This document shows, piece after piece, positions 1 through 17,096 of a stretch of DNA of 64,000 nt. The notes under the pieces are model-generated. The model saw only the letters and a list, made by a program, of their open reading frames with translations. It did no database searches and was not told the origin of the DNA. Positions within the stretch are counted from its first letter, which is position 1; each line of letters starts with the position of its first letter. A program made the position numbers and the translations under genes. The DNA is from a virus (Duplodnaviria; Caudoviricetes): positions 32,001-96,000 of the IMG/VR virus record IMGVR_UViG_3300020577_004340. One strand, given 5' to 3'.

Positions 1-603
1 AAATTTAAACGTAATTCTACTGCAACGTATGTAGCTGGAGGTGCTAGATTTGGGGGGTCATCGAAAGATGACAAGACTGGATTAGCCAGTATCGAAGCAA
101 TGACGGTTGGTGAAATGAATTCATATCCATTTTATGCAATTAATGTAAAGGTAGACCCCACATCAAAAACTGTAAATACCGATTTTAGTGCATCTATGGA
201 AGCCAATTACAGATTACTTGATAAGAAAAAATCTGAATACAAACAGAAAATAGTGGATATTAGAGCGGCTGCAAGAAAGGATGTAAAATATCCAGATGAA
301 TTGACTGATGGCGCAAATAAATTAGAAGAGATAGGTAATTTACTAACTAATTTATTTGAACTAGTTAAGAAAAATCCTGCTAAATACGCATCTTCGACTT
401 TTGGTAAGACAACGACATACGGCAAGGGGATGAGCTCTAAATCATACTATACAGATTTTTTGACTATGTATGCTAAAGTAGCTCGAATATTAGAAGATTC
501 GGCTACACTTTACACAAAAGGGGCTGATTTTTCAACTGAGATGAGACGTTTTGATACAGATGCTACTGACTTAATACAACGATTACAACGAGCACTTAAA
601 TAA
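1..603 (+). CDS. hypothetical phage protein, 5'-partial
   Basis: Frame is open from base 1 into the 100..603 ORF; its stop overlaps the next ATG. Confidence 0.6.
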   Translation, partial: KFKRNSTATYVAGGARFGGSSKDDKTGLASIEAMTVGEMNSYPFYAINVKVDPTSKTVNTDFSASMEANYRLLDKKKSEYKQKIVDIRAAARKDVKYPDELTDGANKLEEIGNLLTNLFELVKKNPAKYASSTFGKTTTYGKGMSSKSYYTDFLTMYAKVARILEDSATLYTKGADFSTEMRRFDTDATDLIQRLQRALK

Positions 604-1139
604 TGCCATTATACACAAAAAGAAAAGATGCTGGCCTTTTAAAAGGCATTAACCGTGAATTACTTCATAGAATAGTTTCTATTGAATTGGCGGTATATCA
701 ATTAAATTTGTCAGCATCTCCGACAAATATATACGGAGAATCATCGAAAAAAGCATATAATCCGCCGGTTAGAATTATCGCTTTACCTAGTATAGATCCA
801 AAATCAACATCAGGTGAAAATGTAGTGGATTATGTACAAACGACACGTTTTGCAATGATGGCATCCGATTTAAAAGAAGCTAACCTTGTTATAGAGGCGG
901 GTAATATTATTGAATTTAATAATAGATTCTATGAAGTGGATAATGTAATTGACACACATTATTGGTCTGGTAGAAACCCTGAGACGTTGTTCAATGTAAC
1001 AGAAGATAAAATGGCTGAATATGGATATAATCATTCAATTTCTATAGAATGTCATTTAACTAAGTTATCAAGTATATCTATTATAGATGTTCATACTGCT
1101 ACTACTTATGAATATCGACACACAAACAAAATAGTTTAA
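603..1139 (+). CDS. putative neck/head-closure protein (T4 gp14-like)
   Basis: NIYGE motif, size, and position in head/neck module. Confidence 0.55.
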   Translation: MPLYTKRKDAGLLKGINRELLHRIVSIELAVYQLNLSASPTNIYGESSKKAYNPPVRIIALPSIDPKSTSGENVVDYVQTTRFAMMASDLKEANLVIEAGNIIEFNNRFYEVDNVIDTHYWSGRNPETLFNVTEDKMAEYGYNHSISIECHLTKLSSISIIDVHTATTYEYRHTNKIV

Positions 1140-1202
1140 AGGAAAATGTAATGTTAACATTAAAAGAAAAAAAAATTAGTAAAACAGTATGCTCGTTCAC
1201 TA

Positions 1203-1448
1203 ATGGAATCCCCGGCAAATCAAGCTAAGGAAGATATAATATTGAATGCAATTAGAAAAAGTGGGTTAGCATCAACCGATAATAAAGTTTCTCAAGGAAA
1301 AATGCCCGGATTGTATTCATGTGAATTGAAAGGAAATAGTATAATTGATGTTGATAGATTAATCAACCTTCAAAAAAATTCATTTTCTAAAGTATCTATA
1401 CGTAGTGGTAATGACACTTTGAAAGCTTATTTTAGATTTAATAATTAA
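1203..1448 (+). CDS. hypothetical protein; true start may be ATG 1151 across an A9 run
   Basis: ORF track; AAGGA plus ATG at 1151 joins this frame if one A is removed from 1167-1175. Confidence 0.5.
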   Translation: MESPANQAKEDIILNAIRKSGLASTDNKVSQGKMPGLYSCELKGNSIIDVDRLINLQKNSFSKVSIRSGNDTLKAYFRFNN

Positions 1449-1460
1449 ACAAAATTAAAA

Positions 1461-1796
1461 ATGGCAATAAAAGCAAATTTAGAAGCAAACGACCAGATTT
1501 ATCCATCGGCGTATTATAAAATTAGTAAACTAATATTAGCCACAGCTGATATTGAATCATTTGTACCGGATAAAGATGGTAACTTAGTATTATCATATGA
1601 AAAAATACATGAGGATTTTGCTCATGTTGTTGTATATCTAGATGAAGAATCTAGACGTAAAAATGTGTTTCCGGTGAAAACGTTTGCAATTGAGTTTAAT
1701 TATGATATTAATAATACAAATAATGCCTATCAACAAGCATACGATGCATTGAAGAATGTAGAGGCGTTAGCAAATTCAGAAATCATTGATTGTTAA
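1461..1796 (+). CDS. hypothetical protein
   Basis: ORF in tightly packed + strand operon. Confidence 0.6.
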   Translation: MAIKANLEANDQIYPSAYYKISKLILATADIESFVPDKDGNLVLSYEKIHEDFAHVVVYLDEESRRKNVFPVKTFAIEFNYDINNTNNAYQQAYDALKNVEALANSEIIDC

Positions 1797-2137
1797 TGAG
1801 GAATAATATGACAGCATTTAATAAGAATGACAAAAGAGCTTTTTTAGAGAGACTTAAGACTTTCTCCAGCATGGGTGAATCGATTTATCGTGCAAAAGAT
1901 TTAAAAACTCGTTGTGACGAAGTTAGAAATATAATTGAAATTGCTGAGCAATTGACATTGCAGGAGACTGAAAATTGGTTCGATGATGTGACTGTTAATA
2001 AGCACATGAAGACACTTAAAGAATCATATAAAATCTTTGAGAAAACTACAAACGAAATTATTACTTCACAACAACGTCTAGAATCTTCATATGAAGATAT
2101 TGCGAATATTCTAGAAAGATATTATGATATAGGATAA
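1790..2137 (+). CDS. hypothetical helical/coiled-coil protein
   Basis: ORF in operon; exact start uncertain. Confidence 0.6.
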   Translation: MLMRNNMTAFNKNDKRAFLERLKTFSSMGESIYRAKDLKTRCDEVRNIIEIAEQLTLQETENWFDDVTVNKHMKTLKESYKIFEKTTNEIITSQQRLESSYEDIANILERYYDIG

Positions 2138-2141
2138 TATT

Positions 2142-2345
2142 ATGGGAATTACAGAAACTGTATTAAATGAAGTAGATGATTTACTCATGGATATTGAAAT
2201 ATTAATTGATTCTGATTATGGAAAGGTGGATGTGGCAACCTTTAAAAAGGCATATTCAAATATATCAGATGAATACATTAAGAAGTTTACTAAATTGTTG
2301 ACTACTATTCAAAGGAATGGCAATTTACAAAATACTGGAAAATAA
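2142..2345 (+). CDS. hypothetical protein
   Basis: ORF packed between neighbours. Confidence 0.5.
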   Translation: MGITETVLNEVDDLLMDIEILIDSDYGKVDVATFKKAYSNISDEYIKKFTKLLTTIQRNGNLQNTGK

Positions 2346-2348
2346 ATT

Positions 2349-3530
2349 ATGTACGAAGTTAATGTTAACATATGGCCAGGGTCTTCATCATTTGTAAGTG
2401 GGTCAACTCCATTTGGGTTCTATGATACAGACCCAGCATTTATAAATGATATTGATAAAGTAGCTGTTTGGTGTTCAAGACGGTTAGGGTATCCCATCAC
2501 TGACATTGAATTACAGGATGTTAATTTCTATGCAGCCTTTGAAGAATCGATAATTGAATATTCTTCACAAATCAATTCATTGAATGCTAGAGATAATCTA
2601 CTTCCGATGATTGGTTTACCATCAACAACAAATTTAAGTGGGCAATTAATTAACCCATCTTTACAAGGGATTTTTCGTGTTGCGAAACAGTATGGCTCTG
2701 AAGTAGGAGCTGGCGGTTATCTTACTTATTACACTGGTTCAATATCAATAACAAGAGATAAACAAGTATATGATTTATTATCAGAAGAGATAGATTTAGA
2801 AAAAGGTGATTTTAATACAGATACATTCACGATACGTAGAATATTGTATGAATATAGTCCAGCAATAAATAGGTCAATTGACCCTGGTATAAGTTCTGGA
2901 TTTGTAGATCAACAAATGTTAACACAATTTGGCTGGAGTGGTTTTTCATCTGGTATGAATTATACTACAATGCCATTATATCATGACCTGTTAAAATTAC
3001 AGGCAGTTGAATTTTATGACCAAATTAAAAAATCAGGCTATTCATTTCAATTAACGAATAATAGATTAAGAATATTTCCAATACCGACATCAGATTATAA
3101 AATATTCTTTTTATATACGTTGAACGATGAGATATTGGAAAATTTATCAACTGGTTCCGGGGCATATGATACTACTGGCTCAGGTGTAATTACTGATTAT
3201 AGTAATATTCCATATAATAATATTCCATATACATTAATAAATGATATTGGCAAAACTTGGATACGAAAATATACATTAGCATTATCGAAAGAAATGTTGG
3301 GGTTGGTTAGAGGAAAATATTCAGCAATACCAATACCAGAAAATGAAATCACACTAAATGGGGCTGAATTAGTTAGTTCCGCCCAAACAGAAAAAGATAC
3401 TTTGATTCAAGAATTAAAAGATACATTGGAATCAATGGGAAGGCAAGCACAATTAGAACGTAAGACAGCTGAATCAGATGCCTTAACATCTCAAATTAAT
3501 AAAGTTCCAATGAAAATATATATTAGATAA
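2349..3530 (+). CDS. neck protein (T4 gp13-like head-tail adaptor)
   Basis: RRLGYP..DIEL N-terminus; WIRKY.LAL.KE.LG..RGKY..IP....TLNG C-terminus. Confidence 0.7.
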   Translation: MYEVNVNIWPGSSSFVSGSTPFGFYDTDPAFINDIDKVAVWCSRRLGYPITDIELQDVNFYAAFEESIIEYSSQINSLNARDNLLPMIGLPSTTNLSGQLINPSLQGIFRVAKQYGSEVGAGGYLTYYTGSISITRDKQVYDLLSEEIDLEKGDFNTDTFTIRRILYEYSPAINRSIDPGISSGFVDQQMLTQFGWSGFSSGMNYTTMPLYHDLLKLQAVEFYDQIKKSGYSFQLTNNRLRIFPIPTSDYKIFFLYTLNDEILENLSTGSGAYDTTGSGVITDYSNIPYNNIPYTLINDIGKTWIRKYTLALSKEMLGLVRGKYSAIPIPENEITLNGAELVSSAQTEKDTLIQELKDTLESMGRQAQLERKTAESDALTSQINKVPMKIYIR

Positions 3531-3536
3531 AAATAA

Positions 3537-3568
3537 TTTGGAATATTACAATAATATTAATAACTTTG
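3537..3568 (+). promoter_or_regulatory. Bacteroidota-type housekeeping promoter
   Basis: TTTG-N20-TAACTTTG, matching the -33/-7 consensus. Confidence 0.75.
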
Positions 3569-3596
3569 TAGTATTATTTTAAAAATAAAAAATGTT

Positions 3597-3962
3597 ATGA
3601 GTGTATATAAAGAATTAAGATCAGTAGTTGATGTTATAGAAAAAGGCAGTAAACAAATTTATACTGATTCAATTGATTTTGGAATGCCAGTAAAAAGTAA
3701 AACTGACCCAATTGTGAAAACAATTAAGGGGATAATAACTCAATATAAACCAAGTGTTGATACACACTGACATGGAACCGGGTCAACACAAACAATTACA
3801 TTTAATGGTGGTGTTGGGCAATATATTGAGGCTGGAGATTCTATTATTAAGATAATATACACTACTACAAGAAAACATTCATCTGGTATAATTGGATATA
3901 TATCTGTTGAGGGAAATACTCCACCGGAGATAAAAAAACGAGCAAGAGCAATGGATTATTAA
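3597..3962 (+). pseudogene. 121-codon reading frame with a single in-frame TGA (3768-3770)
   Basis: ATG 3597 lies behind a consensus promoter; 57 codons, TGA, then 63 further open codons to TAA. Confidence 0.55.
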
Positions 3963-4018
3963 ATAATTTAGTTTAAAATAAAAAACATAAATTATTTTAT
4001 ATTTATTTATAAAAAAGA

Positions 4019-4249
4019 ATGACGAAATCGGAAAAGAAATTTTTATCAATAACACCAGGAACATTGGGCGTAAATGTAATTAATAATGATATTGCATTTG
4101 CATTAAGAGAATTTAAATCTTTAATGAAAAGAAGTGGAAAATTAAATAATATTAAAAAATGTTATGTAAAACCATCAATACGCAGAAAAGAAAAATTAGA
4201 TTCAGCAAAGTTTAAACAGTATTTGAAAACGAAGAGGGAATTATGTTAA
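4019..4249 (+). CDS. rpsU: phage-encoded ribosomal protein bS21 homolog
   Basis: V.NNDI..ALR.FK..MKRSG...YVKPS.RRKE pattern; basic 76 aa; directly upstream of scaffold and capsid genes. Confidence 0.8.
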   Translation: MTKSEKKFLSITPGTLGVNVINNDIAFALREFKSLMKRSGKLNNIKKCYVKPSIRRKEKLDSAKFKQYLKTKRELC

Positions 4250-4422
4250 ATAAACTTGAAAAAAGAATTACCAAAAGACCCAACAATCGATGATTTAGAA
4301 ACAGTATTAGATAAATATGGATATTCCTCAGTTTTTGATTGGGTAAATTCCTTGTTAAAATAACAATTAATCGATATTTTCTAGATTTTTTTAAAAAATA
4401 TTAATGTTTTGAAAAAAACTTT

Positions 4423-4431
4423 ATATTTATA
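4423..4431 (+). promoter_or_regulatory. candidate late promoter ATATTTATA
   Basis: Same motif precedes sheath, tube and other structural genes. Confidence 0.5.
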
Positions 4432-4529
4432 TTAAACAATATACCATATTCTTAATATATGGTTACACATAAAAAATCCTACCATTAAGATTCCTAATAA
4501 TCTTATATTTACAATACATAGAGGTATAA

Positions 4530-5414
4530 ATGAAGAAACCGGCAAAATCAACATTATTGTCCGAAGTAATCGCAGATGCTAAAGCAGTAAAACATACAGC
4601 TGAACAAGCAGCATTCTCAGCGTTAAAAGAGGCTTTCCAGCCAACCATCAATCGATTGGTTTCAAATAAATTGGCAGAAGAAGGTGAATTAGATGATGAA
4701 CCAGAAACTGATGATATCGATTTAGATTCAACAGAATCACCAGAACCACCAGCTGCAGAACCAACTCCAGAAGAAGAAGACTACATGGAAGACGAACCAG
4801 ATGAAGATGATGTTGACTTGGAAGAAATTTTGAGAGAACTGGATGGCGAAGATGATGAGGAAATGATGGATGAAGAAGATGACATGGAAGGCAACGAAGA
4901 TTTATTTAATGAATCAGATGATGCGGACGAAGACGATTTAGATGACTCAATTGATGAAATTATCAATGAAGTTGAAGATGAATTGGAAGAAGAAGACGAC
5001 ATGGAAGACGAACCAGCTCCGTCACCCGAAGTAACAGCTGAAAGTAAAAGATTACGAAGACAATTAAAGAAGACTAGATTAGACTTAAAAGAGGCGCATC
5101 TTGCAATCGCTACTTTAAAAAGTGCATTGACAGAAGTTAACATTTTAAATACTAAGTTGACATATGCAACAAAATTATTGAAAAATAATAATTTAAGTGA
5201 AGCTAAACAAACTGAAATTTTAAAATCGTTTGACAGAGCAAAAACTATAAGAGAAGTTAAGTTAGTCTATGCAACGATTGTAGAAAGTTTGAAGAAAGTT
5301 AAAACACCTACTATTAAAGAATCTATTAATAAAACACCTAAAGCAGTTAATCCAAATGGCAGTGATTTCTATTCATTCGCACCAAGATGGAAAGACTTAG
5401 CGGGTATTAAATAA
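4530..5414 (+). CDS. prohead core/scaffolding protein (gp22-like)
   Basis: Long D/E-rich tract, coiled coil, C-terminal RWKDLAGIK; immediately upstream of MCP. Confidence 0.8.
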   Translation: MKKPAKSTLLSEVIADAKAVKHTAEQAAFSALKEAFQPTINRLVSNKLAEEGELDDEPETDDIDLDSTESPEPPAAEPTPEEEDYMEDEPDEDDVDLEEILRELDGEDDEEMMDEEDDMEGNEDLFNESDDADEDDLDDSIDEIINEVEDELEEEDDMEDEPAPSPEVTAESKRLRRQLKKTRLDLKEAHLAIATLKSALTEVNILNTKLTYATKLLKNNNLSEAKQTEILKSFDRAKTIREVKLVYATIVESLKKVKTPTIKESINKTPKAVNPNGSDFYSFAPRWKDLAGIK

Positions 5415-5443
5415 TTAAAATAAAAACAGAAGGAAACTTATAA

Positions 5444-7096
5444 ATGGATATATCAAAATTAGCGCCGGGTAACTTGGCGGAACAAAAGAAAAAAGAAGCC
5501 ATGTTGTTAGTTAGCAAGTGGGCTAAAACAGGACTTTTAGAGGGCTTAGCTGAAAAAGATAAGGGAGCGGTAGCTACATTATTAGATAATCAGGCTAGAC
5601 AATGTCTAAAAGAGGCGAATAACACAAGTACACAAAATGGAGCTGAAGCTTGGAATGGTGTTGCATTACCATTGATTCGTAGAATTTTTGGTGAAATTGC
5701 ATCAAAAGAATTCTTATCAGTTCAACCAATGAATATGCCTTCAGGCCTTGTATTTTGGTTAGAATATAAATATGCAACTGGACAACCAGGTTATACTACT
5801 AATTCTGGATTAGGTTCACAAGAAGATTCAATCTGGGGTGTAACTGATGCTAGAAAAGGTGATGTGGCTGGAACAGGTGGTTTATATGGTGCTGGAAGAT
5901 ATGGTTATTCAATTAATGATTATAGTTCAAGTGCATTTAGATGTAATGAAACAGCATCTGCAGGTAATATACTAGCTGGTACTGGTTCAGTTGAGGCTTG
6001 TAATTTAACATCAGATATTAATTTTAATTCTGATTTCAGTGGGTCAGTAGTTAACGCTGCTCAAATTAAGAAAATTATAGTTCCAATATCTGGAAGTTCA
6101 CCGAACAACAATATTACAAACGCAGACCCATTGGGTGTAAGAGCATTTACAATTTCTGGAACTGGTATTAACGAAATATATCAAGAATTTACAACTGTAT
6201 CAAGTGATAGTAAGACGGTGACATTTGTGGTATCAGGTTCAATTACTTCAGCAACTGATGTTGTATTGTATTACCATAAACAACCAACTGATATTACTAG
6301 AGGTGATTTTGAGGACAGTAAGACACAAGAAAATCCATTGGATATTCCAAGTTTAGACTTACAATTCCATCAAGAGACAATTGTTGCTAAAACTAGAAAG
6401 TTGAAAGCACACTGGACACCAGAATTTGCACAAGACATTAATGCGTACCAAAACATTGATGCTGAAGCTGAATTGACTGGTATTTTAGGTGAATATGTAT
6501 CACAAGAAATTGATTTGGAATTATTAGATATGTTATTGGATGGGGCACAATCTAAAGATTATTGGTCAGCCAATTTAGGTTATGTGTACAACGCTGGTAG
6601 CAAATCATTTAGTCAAGTAGCAGCAAATGTTGCAGCATACAATCAAGGAACATGGTTCCAAACATTGGGAACTAAAATCCAAAAAATGTCAAATGAGATA
6701 CATTCATTGACACTTAGAGGTGGAGCCAATTTCTTAGTTACTAGCCCAAGAGTTGCAACTATATTAGAATCAATTCCAGGTTATGCAGCTGATACTGATG
6801 GCGATAAAATGAAATTCGCAATGGGTGTTCAAAAGATTGGTACTATTAACAGTAGATTTACAGTATATAAGAACCCTTATATGAGAAGTAATGTTATTTT
6901 AATGGGTTACAGAGGTGCTCAATATTTGGAAACAGGTGCTGTTTACAGTCCATATATTCCATTGATGATGACTCCAACTGTTTTAGATCCAGATAACTTC
7001 ACACCAAGAAAGGGTATTATGACAAGATATGCTAAGAAACTATTAAGACCTGAATTCTATGGTAAATTATATATCAAGGATTTAGATACGGTGTAA
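5444..7096 (+). CDS. major capsid protein (T4 gp23 family)
   Basis: VQPM..PSGL.F, AKTRKLKA.WT.E.AQD, Y.PYIPL, F.PRKG.MTRY motifs. Confidence 0.95.
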   Translation: MDISKLAPGNLAEQKKKEAMLLVSKWAKTGLLEGLAEKDKGAVATLLDNQARQCLKEANNTSTQNGAEAWNGVALPLIRRIFGEIASKEFLSVQPMNMPSGLVFWLEYKYATGQPGYTTNSGLGSQEDSIWGVTDARKGDVAGTGGLYGAGRYGYSINDYSSSAFRCNETASAGNILAGTGSVEACNLTSDINFNSDFSGSVVNAAQIKKIIVPISGSSPNNNITNADPLGVRAFTISGTGINEIYQEFTTVSSDSKTVTFVVSGSITSATDVVLYYHKQPTDITRGDFEDSKTQENPLDIPSLDLQFHQETIVAKTRKLKAHWTPEFAQDINAYQNIDAEAELTGILGEYVSQEIDLELLDMLLDGAQSKDYWSANLGYVYNAGSKSFSQVAANVAAYNQGTWFQTLGTKIQKMSNEIHSLTLRGGANFLVTSPRVATILESIPGYAADTDGDKMKFAMGVQKIGTINSRFTVYKNPYMRSNVILMGYRGAQYLETGAVYSPYIPLMMTPTVLDPDNFTPRKGIMTRYAKKLLRPEFYGKLYIKDLDTV

Positions 7097-7118
7097 CCGT
7101 TATAAACCGAAAAAATCG

Positions 7119-7151
7119 CCCCTATTAAGAAATTAGTAGGGGATTTTTTTT
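7119..7151 (+). terminator. intrinsic terminator after MCP
   Basis: CCCCTATTAA-GAAA-TTAGTAGGGG hairpin followed by a T-run. Confidence 0.85.
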
Positions 7152-7175
7152 GAATTGTCGTAAAATAATATTATA

Positions 7176-8720
7176 TTGTATTGTATGAATAAAAAATGTT
7201 TAATGTGTGGTACTGTATTGACTGTAAAACAAAAACAATTTTGTTCAGTTCAATGCAAAAGTAAATCACAAATTAGAAAGGTGGAAATTGATACAACAAA
7301 ATTGTTTAGATGTAAATTAACTGGAAAAACCGTGTCACTTGGTTCTAAAATGTCCGGATACTTAACTAAATATTCTAAGACAGTTTTGAATAAAGAATAT
7401 GATTCCGATGATTGGGAAATCATTGATAATATTATTACTGTTGTACCCACAATGAGTTGCCCGATATGTATGAGATGGTCAACAAAAGACGTACAAAACA
7501 AATCAGGATGTTTAACAGCACATATTAATAAAGAGCACAAATTAAATATAGATGAATTTTGTACAATTTATCCAGAATTCAAACATCTTTGGTCAATACA
7601 TTGGAAAAAACAAACATACAATGAAGAATTAAATATTCCAGATAATAATATACAATGTTTGGAGTGTGGGAAATTATTAAAAAAGATAACATGTACCCAT
7701 TTAAAAAAACATAATATGAGTAATTCCCAATATTCAGATAAATATGGTGTAACCAATCTATCGTCATTGAACACTAGAAAAAAATTACAAGTATTATATG
7801 CAAATAATGATAATTTATTAGATACTAATTGGAATTCTAAAGGACAGATTGAGATACAAACGTTTATTAATGATTTAGGATTTAAGACTGTAATTAGAAG
7901 AAAAGATCACGTTGAATTAGATATATTCATACCAGAAAAAAATATAGCTATTGAATATAATGGTTTATATTGGCATTCCGAATTTCATGGTAAAAAAAAT
8001 AAATTATACCATGTTCATAAAACTGATTATTGTGAAAAAAATGGAATTCATTTAATACATGTATTTGAGGATGAATGGTATAATAAAAATGATATTATTA
8101 AATCCAGAATTAAAAATATATTAGGAATTAATACAGAACGTATTTATGCTAGGCAATGTACAATACAACCAGTTTCAGGTATAGACAAAAAAGAATTTTT
8201 AGATTTAAATCACATTCAAGGGCATGATAACAGTTCATATTCAATCGGATTGTTTTATAAAACGGATTTGGTTTCCATAATGACTTTTAGGAAGCCGTTG
8301 GTTAGTATGGGGCACAAAAACACGGCTAATAATATAATTGAATTGTCTAGATTTTGCAGTAGATTAAATACAAATGTAATAGGTGCGGCAGATAAATTGT
8401 TTAAATACTTTTTAAAGAATAATACTGAATACGATACAATAATTTCATATGCAGATAGACGTTGGACAACGACAATACGAGAGTCTGTATATGATAAATT
8501 GGGTTTTGTTAATATTGGAAAATCTAACCCAAATTATTGGTACATGAAACGGCACAAAATTAGATTATCAAGATTTAATTACACAAAAAATGCAATATTA
8601 GATAAATTTCCAACTACCTCCCCTGAATTGACAGAATGGGAAAATATGTTGAAGTTAGGTTATGACAGAATATGGGATTGTGGGACATTAAAATATAAAT
8701 ACGATGTGAAAAATAATTAA
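7176..8720 (+). CDS. free-standing putative homing endonuclease (Zn fingers, PD-(D/E)XK/Vsr-like core, extra C-terminal domain)
   Basis: Multiple CxxC/H motifs; ELDIFIP...IAIEYNGLYWHS; LIHVFEDEW; ISYADRRW...RIWDCG tail. Confidence 0.7.
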   Translation: MYCMNKKCLMCGTVLTVKQKQFCSVQCKSKSQIRKVEIDTTKLFRCKLTGKTVSLGSKMSGYLTKYSKTVLNKEYDSDDWEIIDNIITVVPTMSCPICMRWSTKDVQNKSGCLTAHINKEHKLNIDEFCTIYPEFKHLWSIHWKKQTYNEELNIPDNNIQCLECGKLLKKITCTHLKKHNMSNSQYSDKYGVTNLSSLNTRKKLQVLYANNDNLLDTNWNSKGQIEIQTFINDLGFKTVIRRKDHVELDIFIPEKNIAIEYNGLYWHSEFHGKKNKLYHVHKTDYCEKNGIHLIHVFEDEWYNKNDIIKSRIKNILGINTERIYARQCTIQPVSGIDKKEFLDLNHIQGHDNSSYSIGLFYKTDLVSIMTFRKPLVSMGHKNTANNIIELSRFCSRLNTNVIGAADKLFKYFLKNNTEYDTIISYADRRWTTTIRESVYDKLGFVNIGKSNPNYWYMKRHKIRLSRFNYTKNAILDKFPTTSPELTEWENMLKLGYDRIWDCGTLKYKYDVKNN

Positions 8721-8727
8721 TGAAAAA

Positions 8728-8759
8728 TTTGGATAATACATAAACACTATATATATTTG
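8728..8759 (+). promoter_or_regulatory. Bacteroidota-type promoter
   Basis: TTTG-N20-TATATTTG. Confidence 0.75.
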
Positions 8760-8779
8760 TAAGGATAAAACTAAATAAA

Positions 8780-9034
8780 ATGAAAAGGTTCAAATTTACA
8801 TTAGTATATAAAGCATTTGGTGCTAATATCAATTTACCAGTTACATTCGAATATTCGGGTTGGAGGTATCCATCAAAAAGAACTCCACAAAAAGAAATAC
8901 TTAGCATTATAAGTTATGATACGAGTGATATTGACATTGCAACCATTGGATTAGACAATTCGTTTACTTATGGGTTAAAAGGAGATGTAATTAATCAATT
9001 ATATTCAAATTATTCAGAATGGCAAGAAATATAA
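8780..9034 (+). CDS. hypothetical protein
   Basis: ORF behind promoter. Confidence 0.55.
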   Translation: MKRFKFTLVYKAFGANINLPVTFEYSGWRYPSKRTPQKEILSIISYDTSDIDIATIGLDNSFTYGLKGDVINQLYSNYSEWQEI

Positions 9035-9045
9035 AAACTGAAATT

Positions 9046-9198
9046 ATGAAAAATAAAAAAATTGTAAAACGACAAAAAAAATCTCTTGAAGATAAGAAAC
9101 CTATTTTAACCAAAAAAGACTTGAAAATTACTAAACTATTTGATGAAATTGATACTGGCGTATCATATGATGATTTGTTAGAAGAATATGGCTATTAA
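9046..9198 (+). CDS. small basic hypothetical protein (50 aa, not in ORF track)
   Basis: MKNKKIVKRQKK...DDLLEEYGY fills the gap between neighbours. Confidence 0.4.
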   Translation: MKNKKIVKRQKKSLEDKKPILTKKDLKITKLFDEIDTGVSYDDLLEEYGY

Positions 9199-9242
9199 AT
9201 TTGTCAGAGAATTTATATTTATTAATATAATATAGGATTACA

Positions 9243-9497
9243 ATGAGCGTATTTAACGAAGAATATATTCAGGAAATCGTTGAGGTAACTGTTCCATTCC
9301 CATTTATATCAACCAACGAAGTTGGGGAAACGACGGCAATCACAATGGTTAACGACATTCAAGGCGAAGATATCAATGGTATGCCAATGATATTAGAATT
9401 AGAAACGGAAACTGAATATAGTTCAACATATGCTACATATCAATTAGTATCCTCGACGAAAGAATTTAAAAATAATAACGTAGTACAGGAAAATTAA
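9243..9497 (+). CDS. hypothetical protein
   Basis: ORF with upstream AGGA. Confidence 0.55.
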   Translation: MSVFNEEYIQEIVEVTVPFPFISTNEVGETTAITMVNDIQGEDINGMPMILELETETEYSSTYATYQLVSSTKEFKNNNVVQEN

Positions 9498-9498
9498 A

Positions 9499-9690
9499 AT
9501 GATAAAAGTATATATCCCACTAGCAGAAGTGAATCAAGTTATCCGTAGTGATAGTTATATTCCAACTGCCGTATATCTAGTAAACGATAAACCACAATAT
9601 ACAGAATTAGTTGAAATGACAATTCCATATAATAAATGGGAGAGTTGGTCAAAAAATATTCAAAATAAAAGAATGAAATTATGGGATTAG
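9499..9690 (+). CDS. hypothetical protein
   Basis: Coupled ORF. Confidence 0.5.
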   Translation: MIKVYIPLAEVNQVIRSDSYIPTAVYLVNDKPQYTELVEMTIPYNKWESWSKNIQNKRMKLWD

Positions 9691-9893
9691 AACCAGGTAA
9701 TTTAATATTAATATCATTAAACAATCTATGTGACAAAATCAAACAGAAAATATTATCAGCCGATAATAGAAATACTGGTATAATAGAATATATAGATTAT
9801 AATACTAATTTAGTTGATGTTAAAATTAATAGACCGACAACAACTTTACCAATTATTGTAGAGGTTCCACTAGATAATATCATTCCTATTTAA
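9681..9893 (+). CDS. hypothetical protein (possibly SH3/KOW-like)
   Basis: Coupled ORF; G.I..ID....VDV pattern. Confidence 0.45.
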   Translation: MGLEPGNLILISLNNLCDKIKQKILSADNRNTGIIEYIDYNTNLVDVKINRPTTTLPIIVEVPLDNIIPI

Positions 9894-9995
9894 AATTAAG
9901 TATTTATAGTGAATGAGTACCTGTAATACAATAACTTTTTATAATAAATAATATACTTAACTATTAATAAAATTACGTTAGAACTAAAATAAAAT

Positions 9996-10646
9996 ATGGA
10001 ACGAAATCTTCAGTTATTGGAATATGATAATATTCAAATACGTCACCCATTGACGAAAAAAATGGTTACATTATACAGAATAATTGCATTATATACATTT
10101 AAAATTAATGATTTTCACATTGAGAAACATCAGATAGGCGGTTATGTTCAATCCATTGATAATATCGATATGAATACGTTGAATTGGGTTGATGGTAAAT
10201 CAAAAATCTTTGATTCGGCTGTAATAAAGAATGGTACTGTCACTTTACATAATTCACTGGTATTTGGAAATGCGATTGTGAGTGATTCGGTTGTTGCAAA
10301 TTATGCTAGAGTATATGGTAATACAGTAGTTGAATCGACTTTAGTAAATGATTTATCGGAAATTAGAGGTAATGCAAAAGTAACGAATTCTACATTGTAT
10401 AATTCAACACTTATATTCGAAGATGCTGTGGTATCAAATACGGAATTGCATACTGGCTCCAATATTAGGGGTAAAACGAATGTAACAGATTCTTTTTTAT
10501 ATGATACTGCCGAAATTAGCGGAACAGCTATTTGTGTTGGATGTAAATTAACGGGTGCTGCATTATTTAAAGAGGGTGAACATATTAATGAATTGCAAGA
10601 CAGAACATCTAATTTGCGATTTATAGACCCAGTAAATAAAGAGTAA
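9996..10646 (+). CDS. hexapeptide/beta-helix repeat protein
   Basis: LYRIIAL...GGYV head followed by VFGNAIV/VYGNTVV/IRGNAKV repeats. Confidence 0.7.
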   Translation: MERNLQLLEYDNIQIRHPLTKKMVTLYRIIALYTFKINDFHIEKHQIGGYVQSIDNIDMNTLNWVDGKSKIFDSAVIKNGTVTLHNSLVFGNAIVSDSVVANYARVYGNTVVESTLVNDLSEIRGNAKVTNSTLYNSTLIFEDAVVSNTELHTGSNIRGKTNVTDSFLYDTAEISGTAICVGCKLTGAALFKEGEHINELQDRTSNLRFIDPVNKE

Positions 10647-11140
10647 TGAGTTATTCATTATTCAAGACAGAAATAATGGCATTAACTGGAATGCAACATG
10701 TTTCCAGAATCCAATTTGCCCAGACTGTTGGAAATGCTTATAATAATTTAGTGTTACGATGTTTCGAAACATTATCTGGCGGTGGGCAATTTCTGGCAGC
10801 TGCTGGTGGTGTAGGAGCTTTAATTAATGGAATACATTCAATTACCGAACAAAATCTACAACAGCACAATAACATTGATTTTTTTAATCAAATAGCTCCA
10901 TTTATATACACATATTGGGCAGGTCAACCATGTATTGGTCCATTAGGCGTGGTTACAGTTACGTCGCCAGGTACATTTCAAGGTCCAATAGTTCCACAAA
11001 ATTTCGATGCTACTATTTTTATAAATATTTTTCAAGGGGTAGTGGCCACCCATTTACTAACCTTACAAGGAACATATTTAAATTCAATAACAGGCGTTAC
11101 TACTCCATGGAGTGGGGCGACATTGATGACAACTCCATAG
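10646..11140 (+). CDS. hypothetical, probably virion protein
   Basis: YWAG...VTSPG...HL.TLQG...PW.G; composition resembles structural proteins. Confidence 0.5.
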   Translation: MSYSLFKTEIMALTGMQHVSRIQFAQTVGNAYNNLVLRCFETLSGGGQFLAAAGGVGALINGIHSITEQNLQQHNNIDFFNQIAPFIYTYWAGQPCIGPLGVVTVTSPGTFQGPIVPQNFDATIFINIFQGVVATHLLTLQGTYLNSITGVTTPWSGATLMTTP

Positions 11141-11143
11141 ATT

Positions 11144-11338
11144 ATGACTAAACCAACATTTCCGGAAAACAGTCCATTTTCATATGATGTATTGACGACA
11201 TATTCAATAAAGAAGTTGAAAAGAATGCAGGAAGATGAGAAAAAATCATCGGGTACATTCGTATGGTATATGTATCCATGTAATATTAAGAAATTATTGG
11301 AATATATTATTTGGGAAAAAACTGAAAATATTCAATAA
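11144..11338 (+). CDS. hypothetical protein
   Basis: ORF in operon. Confidence 0.45.
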   Translation: MTKPTFPENSPFSYDVLTTYSIKKLKRMQEDEKKSSGTFVWYMYPCNIKKLLEYIIWEKTENIQ

Positions 11339-11342
11339 AAAA

Positions 11343-11374
11343 TTTGGAATGTTATTAAAGTGTACTTAACTTTG
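11343..11374 (+). promoter_or_regulatory. Bacteroidota-type promoter
   Basis: TTTG-N20-TAACTTTG. Confidence 0.75.
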
Positions 11375-11399
11375 TTGAAAATTATTAAAAACAATTATT

Positions 11400-11948
11400 A
11401 TGAAGACAATTAATATTATTTTTGTTTTATTATTATCCAATGTTATAATTGGACAGACAATGAGAGTAACATATTTCAGAGCTAAAGAAGTTAATAATAC
11501 CATTAATTTATACTGGAAGACATTTGTTGAAGATGGTACTGATACATTCAAGATTTATAAATCAATTAATTCGGGGGAATGTGATTATTCCGAGGATAAT
11601 TGGGAATTGATAACTAAAATATCCAATACCAACACTAAAGATGGGGATTATTATAATATTAGTACTACAAGAATTGTTGGTAAACAATATTATAGGTTAG
11701 TTTGGGGGCAATATAAAACTAAATTATATTCATACACAAATCTTAAAGACACGAATGAAATTCCTTTAGTGTATTGTTATGATAACGTTATACATGTACC
11801 CAACATAGACCGTATATTTAATGTATATAATGTAAATAATCAATTGGTGTTGACTAATGTTCAAGACGGGCAATCAATAGAAAATTTGCCAAGTGGTATA
11901 TATATTATTACAGACGATAACAATAGTTATAAAATTATTAAGAGGTAA
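11400..11948 (+). CDS. secreted protein with T9SS type A C-terminal sorting-like domain
   Basis: Signal peptide ending IIG-Q; Ig-like F.A......L.W.T..E....F.I.KS...YYRL; C-terminal VYN..NQLV...ENLPSGIYII......KIIKR. Confidence 0.7.
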   Translation: MKTINIIFVLLLSNVIIGQTMRVTYFRAKEVNNTINLYWKTFVEDGTDTFKIYKSINSGECDYSEDNWELITKISNTNTKDGDYYNISTTRIVGKQYYRLVWGQYKTKLYSYTNLKDTNEIPLVYCYDNVIHVPNIDRIFNVYNVNNQLVLTNVQDGQSIENLPSGIYIITDDNNSYKIIKR

Positions 11949-11949
11949 T

Positions 11950-12681
11950 ATGCCAAAAGTAGATTATGCAGAGTATAAAACGATAAAAGATAAAGTAGTT
12001 GCTAAGGTTACTAAGCAAGGAGCATCTGCATTTACAAAATTAGCCAAACAATATGAAGAATTAGATAAAGAATTATCTATACTTGAGGCAAAAAAGAGAG
12101 AATTAAACGAATTCCAAAATTCAGTTAAGGACAAAGAATCGTCTTTAAAATCTCAAATTCGGGAAAAAATTCAATCGGTTTTCGATGAATCTGAACAAGC
12201 AATGACATTGACTGTTGAATGTTTAGGTTCGGCATTCACGTTATCCAAAGAAACTGAAAATAATAGAGAAAAGGTGATTACAAAATCAGGAGAAATAATT
12301 TCAACTGATTATCAAAAGGTAATTAATCTACTTCTTGAACAAACTCCCGAACTTAAATCGACGATTGATTTGTTGATTAAGAAAGCAAGTGTTATAGCTG
12401 AAAATGATATAACAAAGGCAGGAACAGCACGTGGAGTTAGAATTAGTGCAATTGAATCTATTGTGACTGAAGGTATATGGGATAAAATTACATCAATAGC
12501 GAATAAAATTAGTTCTAAATTAATGGGATTATTTTCAGCATTGACAAATAGACAGAAAAAAATTAATATATTATTGGGTAATCTTAAAGAATCAAAGAAC
12601 GAAAAACCAATTATGTTAAATAAACGTGAGAAAGAATTAGTAAAAGAATATGCTAGAAAAATAATAGAAAAACGTAAATAA
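11950..12681 (+). CDS. coiled-coil hypothetical protein (likely start 11950)
   Basis: GAGGT SD before ATG 11950. Confidence 0.6.
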   Translation: MPKVDYAEYKTIKDKVVAKVTKQGASAFTKLAKQYEELDKELSILEAKKRELNEFQNSVKDKESSLKSQIREKIQSVFDESEQAMTLTVECLGSAFTLSKETENNREKVITKSGEIISTDYQKVINLLLEQTPELKSTIDLLIKKASVIAENDITKAGTARGVRISAIESIVTEGIWDKITSIANKISSKLMGLFSALTNRQKKINILLGNLKESKNEKPIMLNKREKELVKEYARKIIEKRK

Positions 12682-12687
12682 AAATTC

Positions 12688-12945
12688 ATGAAAATAACAA
12701 ATCTCTTAACAATAGCTATTTTCGTTTCGTGTAGCTATTTAATTTTAAACCAATTTGGTTGTACCCCTGGAAATTGTGGATGTGATGAAAAGAAAGAGGT
12801 AATCACAAAAGCAGAAATAGACACAATACCTAATACTGTTGACACAGTAGTAGACAATGTTTCAGAAATTAATGATACTTTAATTGTATCAAAAAAATTA
12901 AAACATTTAAAAATGAAAATTGTTATACCTTACAGATACCAATAA
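12688..12945 (+). CDS. small membrane-anchored or exported protein
   Basis: Hydrophobic N-terminus with a Cys cluster. Confidence 0.5.
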   Translation: MKITNLLTIAIFVSCSYLILNQFGCTPGNCGCDEKKEVITKAEIDTIPNTVDTVVDNVSEINDTLIVSKKLKHLKMKIVIPYRYQ

Positions 12946-12954
12946 AGGAGTTGA

Positions 12955-13587
12955 ATGGCGAAATATAAAGTGCCAAAAGTTACCATTCCATTATGTGTTG
13001 AGCAAATAGCTGCAAAAGAATTAGTTATTACTAAACCAGTAAGCTTTTTAACTGGTAAACCTGGAACAGGTAAAACATGGCTAGCATGCCATATTGCATT
13101 ATCTTTACTAAATGTAGATAAAGATAAAATTATAATTACCAGACCAACTGTTGGTACTGAAGATAATGGGTTCATTCCAGGGGATATTAATGAAAAATTA
13201 GACCCATGGATGGTACCAATTAGAGATAATATTCGGAAATTAGTTGGAACTGAAACCTTACAAAAATTGGAATCGGATTTAAAACTTCAATTAGTATCAC
13301 TCCAACATTTCAGGGGTAGAACATTTGAAAATTCAGTTTGTATAGTAGATGAATTTCAGAATTTAAAGTGTAAACAATTGGCTATGGTGATTGGGCGTTT
13401 GGGAGTAAATTCAATGATGATATTATGTGGAGATGGTCGCCAGATCGATGTAGCTGGAGGATTATCAAAATCAGCATTTTCTAAAATGGAATTGTTAAGA
13501 CAATCAAAACATGTTAATATAATTGATTTACAAGAAAATCACAGACTGCCAGAATTGTTTGAAATATTGGAATTGTTAGATGAGTAA
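12955..13587 (+). CDS. phoH: PhoH family ATPase
   Basis: GKPGTGKT, IITRP, GFIPGD..EK..PW, RGRTF, DEFQN, RLG..S..ILCGD..QID. Confidence 0.92.
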   Translation: MAKYKVPKVTIPLCVEQIAAKELVITKPVSFLTGKPGTGKTWLACHIALSLLNVDKDKIIITRPTVGTEDNGFIPGDINEKLDPWMVPIRDNIRKLVGTETLQKLESDLKLQLVSLQHFRGRTFENSVCIVDEFQNLKCKQLAMVIGRLGVNSMMILCGDGRQIDVAGGLSKSAFSKMELLRQSKHVNIIDLQENHRLPELFEILELLDE

Positions 13588-14416
13588 TAAAATTCCATTT
13601 TCGCGAACACCAATTGCAGAGCCTAAAGATAGCAATAGAGCAATGGATATTAGACGGGATACCGATATATTCAACATCCCGTCTATTACTATCTATGATA
13701 TTGACTTCGCTGTATTATGGCACTTACAAAATAAAATTAGACCACAAATAACTGACAACGGTAGAATAATTGATGTTCCAATCATAATGGATAATGGAGA
13801 AAAATGGTCACAGATACAAGATTTTGGATTTCTCCGTGATAAAGATGGGAAGGTTCAATCACCATTAATTACATTAAGACGTACTACTTTTATAGCAGAC
13901 GACCGTATTCCAAAATTAGATTTACCTAATATATCATCTACAAACGATGCAGGTGATATTAACTCCAACAATGTATTAATCTATACGAGTAATAGACAAA
14001 AGAATAATCAATATGATTTTTTAAATGAATTACAAAACACGAAAAAGTCAATTGAATATTATGTTACAGTACTTCCAGAATATGTTAGAGTATCATATGA
14101 ATTGATGATATGGACTGATATGGTTGAACAATGTAATAAAATTATTGAATTAATTTGGCCACAATCTAGATGTCCATGGGGAGATTCATTGACATTCACA
14201 ACATATGTATTAGACCCAACATTTGAAGTGGTTAATACACTAGGTGAAGATAGATTGGTACGGTGTACAGTTGGTTTAGAAACGGCTGGACAGATACAGC
14301 AACAATATGAATTAAGACAATCAAACATTCGAAAAGCATATTCCAATAAAAGAATTGTGTTTCAAAATGACCGTTCTCAATATGACTTGAATGTCGACCA
14401 AGAATTTCCAATTTAA
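13580..14416 (+). CDS. tail terminator/sheath stabilizer (gp15-like)
   Basis: VPII...EKW, P.Y....YEL.IWT...EQ.N.I.E.I; directly before the sheath gene. Confidence 0.6.
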   Translation: MSNKIPFSRTPIAEPKDSNRAMDIRRDTDIFNIPSITIYDIDFAVLWHLQNKIRPQITDNGRIIDVPIIMDNGEKWSQIQDFGFLRDKDGKVQSPLITLRRTTFIADDRIPKLDLPNISSTNDAGDINSNNVLIYTSNRQKNNQYDFLNELQNTKKSIEYYVTVLPEYVRVSYELMIWTDMVEQCNKIIELIWPQSRCPWGDSLTFTTYVLDPTFEVVNTLGEDRLVRCTVGLETAGQIQQQYELRQSNIRKAYSNKRIVFQNDRSQYDLNVDQEFPI

Positions 14417-14450
14417 TATCTAAAAAATGTACGTTTAGAAAAAACCTTTT

Positions 14451-14459
14451 ATATTTATA
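14451..14459 (+). promoter_or_regulatory. candidate late promoter ATATTTATA
   Basis: Context nearly identical to the 4423 copy. Confidence 0.5.
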
Positions 14460-14491
14460 TAAACAGTATAATTAATTAAAGGTTTTAAACA

Positions 14492-16315
14492 ATGGGAAAA
14501 AGTACATTTTTATCAGCTGGTGTTTATACAAGGGAATTTGATTTATCATTTTTACCAGCAGACACACCAGCAGTAGGTGCCGCAGTAATAGGCCCAACAG
14601 CAAGAGGTCCAGCGATGGTACCGACTACCATATCAACATATTCAGAATATCTTAGATGGTTTGGTGATGTATTTAGTTCAGGTTCAGGAGCAAACGAACA
14701 GGAATATAAATATTTAACTTCATATTCAATTCAAGAATATTTACGTTGGGGAGAAACAGCTACCGTAGTTAGAATATTAGCAGGTAATTATCAACCAGCG
14801 TATAGCAATGTAATATCTTCAGCATCATTAGCTGCAAATTTACATGCAACCACAGACATGGCATTTACTTTGTATGCTTTAACTGATGGTGAAATTACTA
14901 ATTCAGGCCAGAATTCAGCTGCAATAAGTGGGTCTGGAATTTCTGGTGATGAAACAATTTCAGGGTCATTGGCATCTGGATCAAAATATAATATTAGATG
15001 GGAAGTAGCTAATATTGATAACAATCGTGGAACATTTGATGTATATATCAGACGTGGAGATGATTCCAGTAATAGAAAAATTATATTAGAATCATTTGTA
15101 GGTGTATCTTTAGATCCAAATACATCCAACTATATTGGAAAGGTAATAGGCGACCAGACTTACGCATTAAGATATGATTCATCTGGAGAACCTTATTTAC
15201 AGCCAAGTGGTTCGAATTTAAACCGTTCTAGATTTGTTAGATGTCAAGTTAATAAGAAGACTTTAAATTATTTGAACAATGATGGTGGTATAAGAGATGC
15301 ATCACTTTCAGGTTCGTTGCCAATAGCATGTTCTGGAACATTTGGTGCTGGAAATGATGGAAACGTGGCTCATCCAAGAGCAATGTACACTGATATCTGG
15401 AATTTAAATACACAAGGGTTTAACCTAGCATCGTCTTCATATGGACAAACAGCATACGAAGATGCAATAGACATATTATCAAATAAAGACCAATACGATT
15501 TTGACTTATTAGTGACACCAGGTTTAATTGACAACTTAGAAGACCATGCTAAAGTTATCACGAAAGCAATTAACATGGTTGAAGATAGAGGCGATTGTTT
15601 CTATATAATTGACCCTACATACTTTGGTTCAACTGTTGGTCAAGCTAGAATGGCATCAGAGGCAAGAAACACTAATTATGCATCATATTACTATCCATGG
15701 GTTCAAGTTGCAGACGCTGATTTAGGCGGACCAAAATGGGTTCCACCATCTGCAATGTTACCAGGCGTAATCGCATTTAATGATTATGCATCAGAGAAAT
15801 GGTATGCTCCAGCTGGATTAAATCGTGGTGGATTGGATACTGTATTGCAAACTGAAAGGTTTATGACACAAAATGATAGAGATAATTTATATCAAAAATC
15901 AATCAATCCAATTGCAACGTTCCCTAGAGAAGGTGTAGTTGTTTGGGGGCAAAAAACATTACAGAAGAAAAGAAGTGCCTTAGACCGTGTTAATGTTAGA
16001 CGATTGTTAATCGCTGCAAAAAGGCATGTTACTATAATTGGGCGACAAATTGTATTTGAGCAAAATACGAGAGAAACAAGAACAAAATTCCTTAATCTAG
16101 TAAGACCTTGGTTTGAAAATTGTCGAAGAAAACAAGGATTGTATGATTTCAGAATCATCGTTGACGAAAGAAACAATACGGCGGATGTAGTTGATAGAAA
16201 TGAAATGAGATGTCAAATATTTTTAAAGCCAGCAAAAACAGCAGAATTTATAATTACAGACTTTAACATTCTACCAACTGGTGCAGCTTTCCCAATTGAT
16301 AATGATGTGAAATAA
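14492..16315 (+). CDS. tail sheath protein (gp18)
   Basis: S.GVYTRE.DLS, YYPW, VPPS, W.APAG.NRG, INPI, WGQKT, RVNVRRL, KP.KTAEFI. Confidence 0.95.
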   Translation: MGKSTFLSAGVYTREFDLSFLPADTPAVGAAVIGPTARGPAMVPTTISTYSEYLRWFGDVFSSGSGANEQEYKYLTSYSIQEYLRWGETATVVRILAGNYQPAYSNVISSASLAANLHATTDMAFTLYALTDGEITNSGQNSAAISGSGISGDETISGSLASGSKYNIRWEVANIDNNRGTFDVYIRRGDDSSNRKIILESFVGVSLDPNTSNYIGKVIGDQTYALRYDSSGEPYLQPSGSNLNRSRFVRCQVNKKTLNYLNNDGGIRDASLSGSLPIACSGTFGAGNDGNVAHPRAMYTDIWNLNTQGFNLASSSYGQTAYEDAIDILSNKDQYDFDLLVTPGLIDNLEDHAKVITKAINMVEDRGDCFYIIDPTYFGSTVGQARMASEARNTNYASYYYPWVQVADADLGGPKWVPPSAMLPGVIAFNDYASEKWYAPAGLNRGGLDTVLQTERFMTQNDRDNLYQKSINPIATFPREGVVVWGQKTLQKKRSALDRVNVRRLLIAAKRHVTIIGRQIVFEQNTRETRTKFLNLVRPWFENCRRKQGLYDFRIIVDERNNTADVVDRNEMRCQIFLKPAKTAEFIITDFNILPTGAAFPIDNDVK

Positions 16316-16356
16316 AAAATCTGGATTAATTAATATTTATAGTAAAAAGGAATAAA

Positions 16357-16818: not shown

Positions 16819-16841
16819 TAATTAAAAAAAGAGAAAAAATT

Positions 16842-17096
16842 ATGTCAGAAGGTTTAAAATCATTAATTAGACATGCGCTTACCTTGTTAGGTGGATTATT
16901 GACAGTTTTAGGACTTGGTAAATATTCCGGTGCATTGACTTATTTATTGGACAATTTAGATGTCCTTTGGGCATCCATCGCAGCAATAGTAGGTATCGTT
17001 ACCATGTTATATGGCTATTTTAAAGATACTACTAGATTCGCAGTTAGAACTGAAGCTGCCGCTATTAACGAAGTTAGTTCCAGTAATAGTAAGTAA
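16842..17096 (+). CDS. small two-TM membrane protein (holin-like)
   Basis: IRHALT.LGG.L motif and two hydrophobic segments. Confidence 0.55.
   Translation: MSEGLKSLIRHALTLLGGLLTVLGLGKYSGALTYLLDNLDVLWASIAAIVGIVTMLYGYFKDTTRFAVRTEAAAINEVSSSNSK

Follow-up and report, generated by a model that had tools for sequence, protein, structure and literature searches.

The bS21 gene and the head operon

We analysed a window of 64,000 nucleotides (bases 32001-96000 of the 123,975-bp IMG/VR record IMGVR_UViG_3300020577_004340, a virus of the Caudoviricetes), with emphasis on a gene for the ribosomal protein bS21 among the head genes and on the Shine-Dalgarno (SD) sequences that precede the late genes. The record has a G+C content of 30.4% and was estimated by CheckV to be 66% complete. 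The bS21 gene (positions 4019-4249 of the window, + strand, 76 aa, Pfam PF01165) has an A/T-rich leader without an SD and ends 280 nt before an acidic scaffold-like gene of 294 aa (4530-5414, + strand), which is followed by the gene for a major capsid protein of the T4 Gp23 family (5444-7096, + strand, Pfam PF07068, E-value 9.7e-72). The scaffold-like gene has no Pfam match and was named for its D/E-rich sequence and because the capsid gene comes next; 76 homologs of its product were found in related loci. There is no terminator between the bS21 gene and the capsid gene, and the unit appears to be closed by an intrinsic terminator with a 10-bp stem and a T run after the capsid gene (7119-7152, + strand). 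A candidate late motif, TTATATTTA, is located 14 nt before the bS21 start (3997-4005), with additional copies in the spacer between the bS21 and scaffold genes (4421-4429) and 19 nt before the scaffold start (4503-4511), all on the + strand. An earlier note on this DNA had placed bS21 directly upstream of the scaffold and capsid genes and behind this motif, an arrangement that our gene calls reproduce. Overall, its 12 copies represent no enrichment over the 9.3 expected, and five of the eight copies on the + strand lie in the leaders of late genes, namely those of bS21, the scaffold (two copies), the gene at 9243 and the tail sheath. A 16-codon mini-open reading frame (ORF), MLNKLEKRITKRPNNR, begins within the last codons of bS21 (4243-4293).

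The bS21 ORF matched Pfam Ribosomal_S21 with an E-value of 7.6e-8 (32.4 bits, cut-off 27), a six-frame search of the record with the bS21 profile gave 32.1 bits, and the score against the NCBIfam S21p equivalog (TIGR00030) was slightly below the cut-off (28.4 vs 28.95). Solved bS21 chains in the PDB match residues 22-72 of the phage protein, and the KPS motif between the helices is present (K51-P52-S53). Judged from its sequence, the ORF at 4019-4249 is a real bS21 gene, with a product that putatively binds the 30S platform. The AlphaFold2 model has a pLDDT (predicted local distance difference test) score of 92 and predicts helices at residues 25-39 and 52-75 plus an extra N-terminal helix at residues 3-10; the underlying alignment left out the sequence of phage Mel-JY01. 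A Foldseek search with the model gave nothing significant and only weak matches to mitochondrial bS21m (E-value about 1), as can happen for an extended protein that is modelled off the ribosome. Neither a phage bS18 nor a phage bS6 could be identified.

An exhaustive HMMER search identified 34 bS21 relatives, 72-102 aa in length and alignable from the first residue onwards, as compared to only three close relatives in a word-index homolog search. The family consensus consists of an N-terminal extension, MxKxxKxxxSIxPG, placed before the usual core, and of KPSxxRRxxxxxAK[Y/F]xQ. This phage-specific extension is conserved and comprises about 14-17 residues; an N-terminal extension of phage S21 proteins has been remarked upon previously (Al-Shayeb et al., PMC7162821). 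The bS21 of the window had no tblastn match among cultured phages, and a search of cultured phages with the bS21 protein of a relative revealed no cultured Bacteroidota phage with this bS21 family. In one sub-clade (L009-L013, bS21 ORF at 8596-8929), the bS21 call comprises 110 aa, of which about 33 at the N-terminus are additional, and a histidine occupies the position of Tyr54 in the host protein; the extra length may reflect a wrongly called start.

Over their residues 10-60, two solved chains, 9i5v_9 and, from Flavobacterium johnsoniae, 7jil_z, can be aligned with the family profile without any gap. In the best solved match, 9i5v_9, the aligned residue is Tyr54, which stacks on A1534 and is a signature of Bacteroidetes bS21 (PMC7797042). 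Since S53 of the phage protein corresponds to S42, F65 occupies the position of Tyr54 in F. johnsoniae. The earlier note had thus correctly located the SAKF of the phage protein at the equivalent position. Its suggestion that SAKF in place of a KAxY-type motif frees the anti-SD did not hold up, because phenylalanine is aromatic and can stack like tyrosine, and because 34 of the 44 distinct phage bS21 proteins retain tyrosine, the others having F (seven), H, L or K (one each). An explanation based on residue 65 was also rejected on the grounds that SD-led capsid genes are found in combination with each of these five residues.

The bS21 gene itself is not preceded by an SD. Its leader has a duplex energy of +1.6 kcal/mol, and only two of 42 distinct phage bS21 genes carry an SD before their own start. 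Phage bS21 genes thus almost never have this signal, in contrast to the host gene rpsU, which has an extended SD that is used for autoregulation.

Shine-Dalgarno leaders, promoters and host type

Ribosomes of the Bacteroidia are blind to the SD, and their anti-SD is sequestered (Jha 2021, PMC7797042). We scored the leaders of the 164-166 genes called with a codon model in the 124-kb record by RNAduplex, pairing the region from -20 to -4 with the Bacteroidia 16S tail and applying a threshold of -4.5 kcal/mol or lower. Genes were classified as late or early by function (PHROG) and not by position, the block of genes 18-82 including thyX, SSB, UvsX, DnaB, ribonucleotide reductase and QueE. Among the late genes, 12 of 46 (26%) passed the threshold, as compared to 10% in shuffles of their own windows (binomial p=0.0016). 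The corresponding values for the early genes were 7 of 107 (6.5%) and 5.9% (p=0.45). The comparison between late and early genes that the earlier note had called for therefore revealed a statistical enrichment in late genes (Fisher p=0.002, Mann-Whitney p=3e-6). Likewise, SD 4-mers at positions -14 to -5 were found 30 times before late genes vs 4.9 expected from flanking positions, and 20 times vs 10.8 before early genes. There is no enrichment across the genome as a whole (13% of genes at or below -4.5 kcal/mol vs 17.6% upstream of internal ATGs), and the signal is visible only once the genes are split by class. As a positive control, the same pipeline yielded 63% for the first 50 kb of phage T4, which contain early genes and come from a phage of an SD-reading host. 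The candidate SD sites are complementary to the 16S 3' tail, lie 4-9 nt before the start codon and are commoner than expected by chance in late genes only.

All seven SD-like motifs that had been listed for the late genes were recovered on the + strand. Five of them are GAGGT at 4521-4525, with a 4-nt spacer to the scaffold ATG (-7.2 kcal/mol), AAGGA at 5430-5434, with a 9-nt spacer to the capsid ATG (-6.6), GAGGT at 11942-11946 before the gene at 11950 (-6.7), AAGGAG at 12945-12950 before the PhoH-like gene at 12955 (-8.6) and AAGGA at 16347-16351 before the tail tube gene (16357-16818, + strand, Pfam; -6.2). Two AAGGT motifs are weak, one at 14479-14483 before the tail sheath gene (14492-16315, + strand, Pfam; -3.8) and one at 18515-18519 before a tape-measure-like gene of 1656 aa (18528-23498, + strand; -4.0). 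Two exceptions had also been put forward. The gene at 1461 indeed lacks an SD. An AAGGAG is present before nrdJ (gene at 35608), but it ends 1 nt before the ATG, which is too close for normal spacing.

A second class of leaders is associated with promoters. The pattern TTTG-N16-21-TAnnTTTG, which we take to be the two-part consensus of Bacteroidota housekeeping promoters, was identified within 120 nt upstream of 13 genes on the sense strand and of none on the antisense strand, as compared to a mean of 0.36 and a maximum of two in shuffled sequences. The form before these 13 genes is very regular, AAATTTGGAAA-N17-TAnnTTTG(TAG). The sites within the window are located at 3537-3568, 8728-8759, 9174-9203, 11343-11374 and 41260-41291, and there are eight more in the genome. 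The first of these, TTTGG-N-TAACTTTG, precedes the SD-less gene at 3597, the site at 11343-11374 precedes an SD-less gene with a tail resembling that of type IX secretion system (T9SS) substrates (11400-11948), and the site at 41260-41291 precedes the SD-less early gene at 41308, all three on the + strand. In agreement with the proposal that genes behind host-type promoters have no SD, only one of the 13 carries one. The late structural block is not purely late, because five of the 13 host-type promoters lie inside it.

The 182-aa protein encoded at 11400-11948 has a C-terminus similar to the T9SS type-A sorting domain (TIGR04183), with a score of 21.6-23.3 bits that is at the cut-off; the positive control, from Flavobacterium phage immuto, scored 47 bits. 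The promoters, the T9SS tail, the Bacteroidia-type register of bS21 and the SD-less early genes together provide good support for a predicted host in the Bacteroidota, which is most likely Flavobacteriia-like. The lone -7 box, TAnnTTTG, was discarded as a host marker since it is not enriched even in immuto, a known Flavobacterium phage. The bipartite motif is specific in this phage (G000) and in one relative (G005) but not in two other relatives (G006, G001) or in immuto.

Related phages, gene order and occurrence

The closest cultured relatives by capsid protein are Flavobacterium phage vB_FspM_immuto (MW353176, 48% identity) and Mel-JY01 (PP395634, 54% identity), both of which have the same order of genes in the head module. 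A search with the capsid protein of the window identified 80 viral contigs at 54-65% identity, and a search with the immuto capsid protein added 79 new contigs to one that had already been found. In 54 loci of the first set and in three of the immuto set, a bS21 gene of the family comes first in the order bS21-scaffold-capsid, 1.1-1.5 kb ahead of the capsid gene. We restricted the comparison to 99 loci in which no two capsid proteins are identical and for which the sequence extends 2.5 kb or more upstream; bS21 is present in 43 of them and absent from 56.

An SD precedes the capsid gene in 42 of the 43 loci with bS21 and in none of the 56 loci without it, a difference that is not statistically significant because only two independent comparisons underlie it. 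The scaffold gene is preceded by an SD in 40 of 43 loci with bS21 and in 10 of 56 without, and the fraction of all genes with an SD is 53.6% and 10.5%, respectively. The G content at positions -12 to -7 climbs to 23-38% only in the set with bS21 (711 distinct leaders), whereas the set without bS21 (691 distinct leaders) has a flat G profile and A-rich leaders. Strong SDs in loci without bS21 were observed in, for example, L171, L173, L176, L185, L186 and L196, where they are found about 25 nt ahead of the gene that precedes the capsid gene; these contigs are short, and bS21 may be located elsewhere.

The same contrast was obtained for longer genomes. Among those with bS21, an SD was identified before 13 of 26 late and 4 of 36 early genes in G005, a complete genome of 188.5 kb with terminal repeats (p=0.0012), before 16 of 26 late and 5 of 20 early genes in G006 (p=0.019), and before 12 of 19 late and 6 of 23 early genes in Mel-JY01, in which bS21 has a lysine at the Tyr54 position. 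G001 (143 kb) and the complete genome of immuto contain no bS21 anywhere in their records, and they have SDs before 0 of 20 late and 0 of 17 early genes, and before 1 of 16 late and 0 of 16 early genes, respectively. The division into SD-led late and SD-less early genes, on which the earlier note had based its idea of a ribosome-reprogramming switch, therefore recurs in three more genomes with bS21 and is gone in relatives without it; the SAKF argument has to be removed from that idea. The association between bS21 and SD-led late genes is real, although phylogenetically thin. One clade without bS21 (L018-L031, together with L035) is nested beside the clade of this phage with 99% support in the Shimodaira-Hasegawa-like approximate likelihood-ratio test, and the other is immuto-like.

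The purine-rich motifs could be relics from SD-using T4-like ancestors, or a mere consequence of G-richer leaders, and be ignored by the ribosomes. The upstream windows of the late genes are indeed richer in G (13% vs 8.6%), and the motif is present on just a quarter of the late genes in this phage. We nevertheless consider such an origin highly improbable, as the 4-mers form a sharp peak at -14 to -5, the G footprint extends over the 711 leaders, the enrichment persists over shuffles of the same windows, and the SD motifs are kept at orthologous genes across protein identities of 54-65%.

Nearly all genes of the record are located on a single strand. As identified with PHROG and Pfam, the gene order starts with a primase and an SbcCD-like nuclease, followed by several large unknown proteins, and continues with a large terminase (TerL) in two pieces, the portal, the prohead protease, bS21, the scaffold-like protein and the capsid protein. 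Thereafter follow PhoH, the tail sheath, the tail tube and the tape-measure-like protein, and then thyX, SSB, UvsX, DnaB and ribonucleotide reductase, ahead of QueE and other genes for replication and nucleotide metabolism. The TerL matches are in two ORFs of 281 and 242 aa upstream of the window (L005:9413-11875, genome 24413-26875), which are separated by an ORF of 299 aa with an SD-like leader and no PHROG match; the arrangement is suggestive of a split gene or of the insertion of a mobile gene. Directly past the capsid terminator, a protein of 514 aa (7176-8720) contains a ROS/MucR zinc-finger region and a weak Mom-like domain. ARAGORN identified no ordinary tRNA genes in the record and made only one tRNA-like call, with a 2-nt anticodon (L007:14356-14426, genome about 122356-122426). 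With positions 1-20000 of the window as the query, the phage or its relatives were detected at 95% identity or more in riverine, wastewater and activated-sludge metagenome runs from about 10 studies.

Possible role of the phage bS21 and comparison with known systems

In F. johnsoniae, deletion of the bS21 C-terminus, the Y54A substitution or depletion of bS21 increases SD-dependent translation 3-5 fold (McNutt 2023, PMC9976891). For phage bS21, co-expression with late structural genes has been described (PMC9723584). In the mechanism that we propose, a lytic myophage with a T4-type capsid would infect a Bacteroidota host with ribosomes that hold the 16S anti-SD tail in a pocket formed by bS21, bS18 and bS6. 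Early and middle genes, with their host-type promoters and A-rich, SD-less leaders, would be usable by unmodified host ribosomes. The late head operon opens with an SD-less bS21 gene, so that ordinary ribosomes should be able to make the phage protein. We infer that phage bS21 would then join the 30S subunit, either newly made or by exchange with host bS21, while keeping the core needed for the mRNA channel, and that it would move the 16S 3' tail towards the free state. The short SDs (4-7 nt, located 4-9 nt before the start) on the scaffold, capsid, tube, sheath and other late mRNAs could thereby be read, creating a privileged channel for virion proteins.

That phage bS21 causes late mRNAs to be read through their SDs is plausible and unproven, and we put its chances at somewhat below even. 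The stronger form, in which phage bS21 is a specificity switch that replaces host bS21 and unlocks the anti-SD, opens a channel closed to all host mRNAs except rpsU, and drives the gain and loss of SD leaders genome-wide through its own gain and loss, is tentative, and we would sooner bet against it than for it. If bS21 acts in this manner, the determinant would not be residue 65, and the N-terminal extension (MxKxxKxxxSIxPG) is the most obvious candidate.

Several observations weigh against a causal role of bS21. Two changes of the bS21 state suffice to explain the capsid tree, which leaves only two pairs that are independent of each other and a sign test that is not significant, and a host shift that altered both traits at once could explain the association equally well. 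A strong SD, TTTAAGGAGAAAC, is found in 10 of the 56 loci without bS21, where it precedes only the scaffold gene and the capsid gene has none, and in this phage no more than 26% of the late genes have an SD. The masking aromatic is kept, as Phe here and Tyr in most relatives, and Chen et al. interpreted the conserved aromatic as continued masking of the anti-SD (PMC9723584). Bacteroidia-type, anti-SD-masking bS21 is characterized by a C-terminal domain with less basic character than in other phyla. The net charge after KPS, which was tried as a discriminator and rejected, does not differ clearly, being +6 in this phage, +3 as the family median and about +6 in the aligned C-terminal stretch of 9i5v_9 (counted by hand). 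Watson et al. (2020), who compared the ribosome-binding sites of S21-encoding huge phages with those of hosts, discerned no clear link to S21 (PMC7550191). Finally, the contigs from RNA libraries are fragmentary: in three wastewater metatranscriptome runs, the Logan contigs are scattered pieces of the late region, which can neither show transcripts, their levels or their strand nor exclude carry-over of DNA.

The main rival explanation is an effect of host lineage, in which the clade with bS21 infects a lineage, from the Bacteroidota or elsewhere, in which SDs on highly expressed genes are already read, and the clades without bS21 infect fully SD-blind hosts, so that bS21 would leave SD reading unchanged and only boost or capture ribosomes, as has been proposed for phage S21 in general. 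The small number of state changes and the retained aromatic at position 54 are consistent with this, as are Mel-JY01, which is recorded as a Microcystis phage and displays the same pattern with a lysine at the Tyr54 position, and G006, in which 25-32% of the non-late genes have an SD. However, in an SD-reading host the early genes would not be expected to remain at the level of the shuffles (6.5% vs 5.9%) when those of T4 reach 63% in the same pipeline, nor would only one of the 13 genes behind host-type promoters be expected to have an SD. An ordinary host of the Bacteroidia type is what the promoters and the T9SS tail suggest, and in F. johnsoniae, the model of the Bacteroidia, a strong SD is found on rpsU only (PMC9976891; Arpin 2026, PMC13000457). 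On balance, we regard the host-lineage effect as unlikely, if still a serious contender.

It could also be that the SD-led late mRNAs are read by ribosomes that lack bS21, either as a natural subpopulation or after a collapse of rpsU expression. Phage bS21 would then be host-like and merely accompany SD use, keeping the SD-less phage mRNAs translated or blunting the rpsU feedback. More than 10% of the ribosomes in wild-type F. johnsoniae are reported to lack bS21 and to prefer the SD-led rpsU, and the helix between SD and anti-SD excludes bS21 (PMC13000457). Furthermore, the Bacteroidia-type aromatic fits host-like masking, and the phage gene is without the SD that drives autoregulation in the host. 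This explanation is improbable in our view, since it leaves the loss of SDs in the sister phages without bS21 unexplained, and since a masking bS21 produced from the same operon would oppose the SD-led genes located just downstream of it.

The location of phage bS21 in head modules, its late co-expression and the general idea of a hijack have already been published (PMC6375957, PMC7162821, PMC9723584), and the proposal that phage bS21 selects phage mRNAs has been made with the selectable feature of the mRNA left unnamed. In a full-text literature search, we found no paper on Bacteroidota phages in which SD-led late genes are connected with a phage bS21. SD leaders are a candidate for that feature: they are concentrated on late genes and co-occur with phage bS21, the gene of which has no such leader, and the host phylum ignores the SD. 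A causal role of phage bS21 is now amenable to bench tests with existing F. johnsoniae reporters, bS21-depleted ribosomes and cryo-EM. If true, it would represent a natural example of a virus that, through the exchange of a single protein, changes which mRNAs the ribosome prefers, and it could be exploited for orthogonal gene expression in the Bacteroidota.

The system most similar to the one described here is that of clades a-e of freshwater Bacteroidetes myophages (Chen et al., 2022, ISME Commun 2:31, PMC9723584). In both cases, bS21 is located among genes for terminase, portal, protease, scaffold and capsid proteins, the predicted host belongs to the Bacteroidota, an aromatic occupies the Tyr54 position, and a role that favors late phage mRNAs has been proposed. 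Chen et al. named no selected mRNA feature, and in their model the anti-SD stays masked, whereas the late genes studied here have SD leaders that are gone in relatives without bS21. The orientation of the bS21 gene also differs: in this phage it agrees with that of the head genes, and in theirs the gene lies on the reverse strand.

With F. johnsoniae (PMC7797042, PMC9976891, PMC13000457), the phage shares the protein family and the register of KPS, 12 residues and an aromatic, and in both the bS21 status would decide on SD-led translation. There, the signal concerns one gene, rpsU, with a 13-nt SD that is read by bS21-free ribosomes, as compared to dozens of late genes with short SDs here, and the N-terminal extension of about 14-17 residues is present in phage bS21 but not in host bS21. 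An N-terminal extension is likewise found in the S21 proteins of Pelagibacter phage HTVC008M and of huge phages, for which a substitution of host bS21 that biases initiation has also been proposed (Mizuno 2019, PMC6375957; PMC7162821; PMC7550191), and the HTVC008M protein enters E. coli ribosomes according to McNutt et al. (PMC9976891). Since the hosts of those phages mostly read the SD and the host phylum here is blind to it, the contrast between SD-led late genes and SD-less early genes is particularly sharp in the system described in this study.

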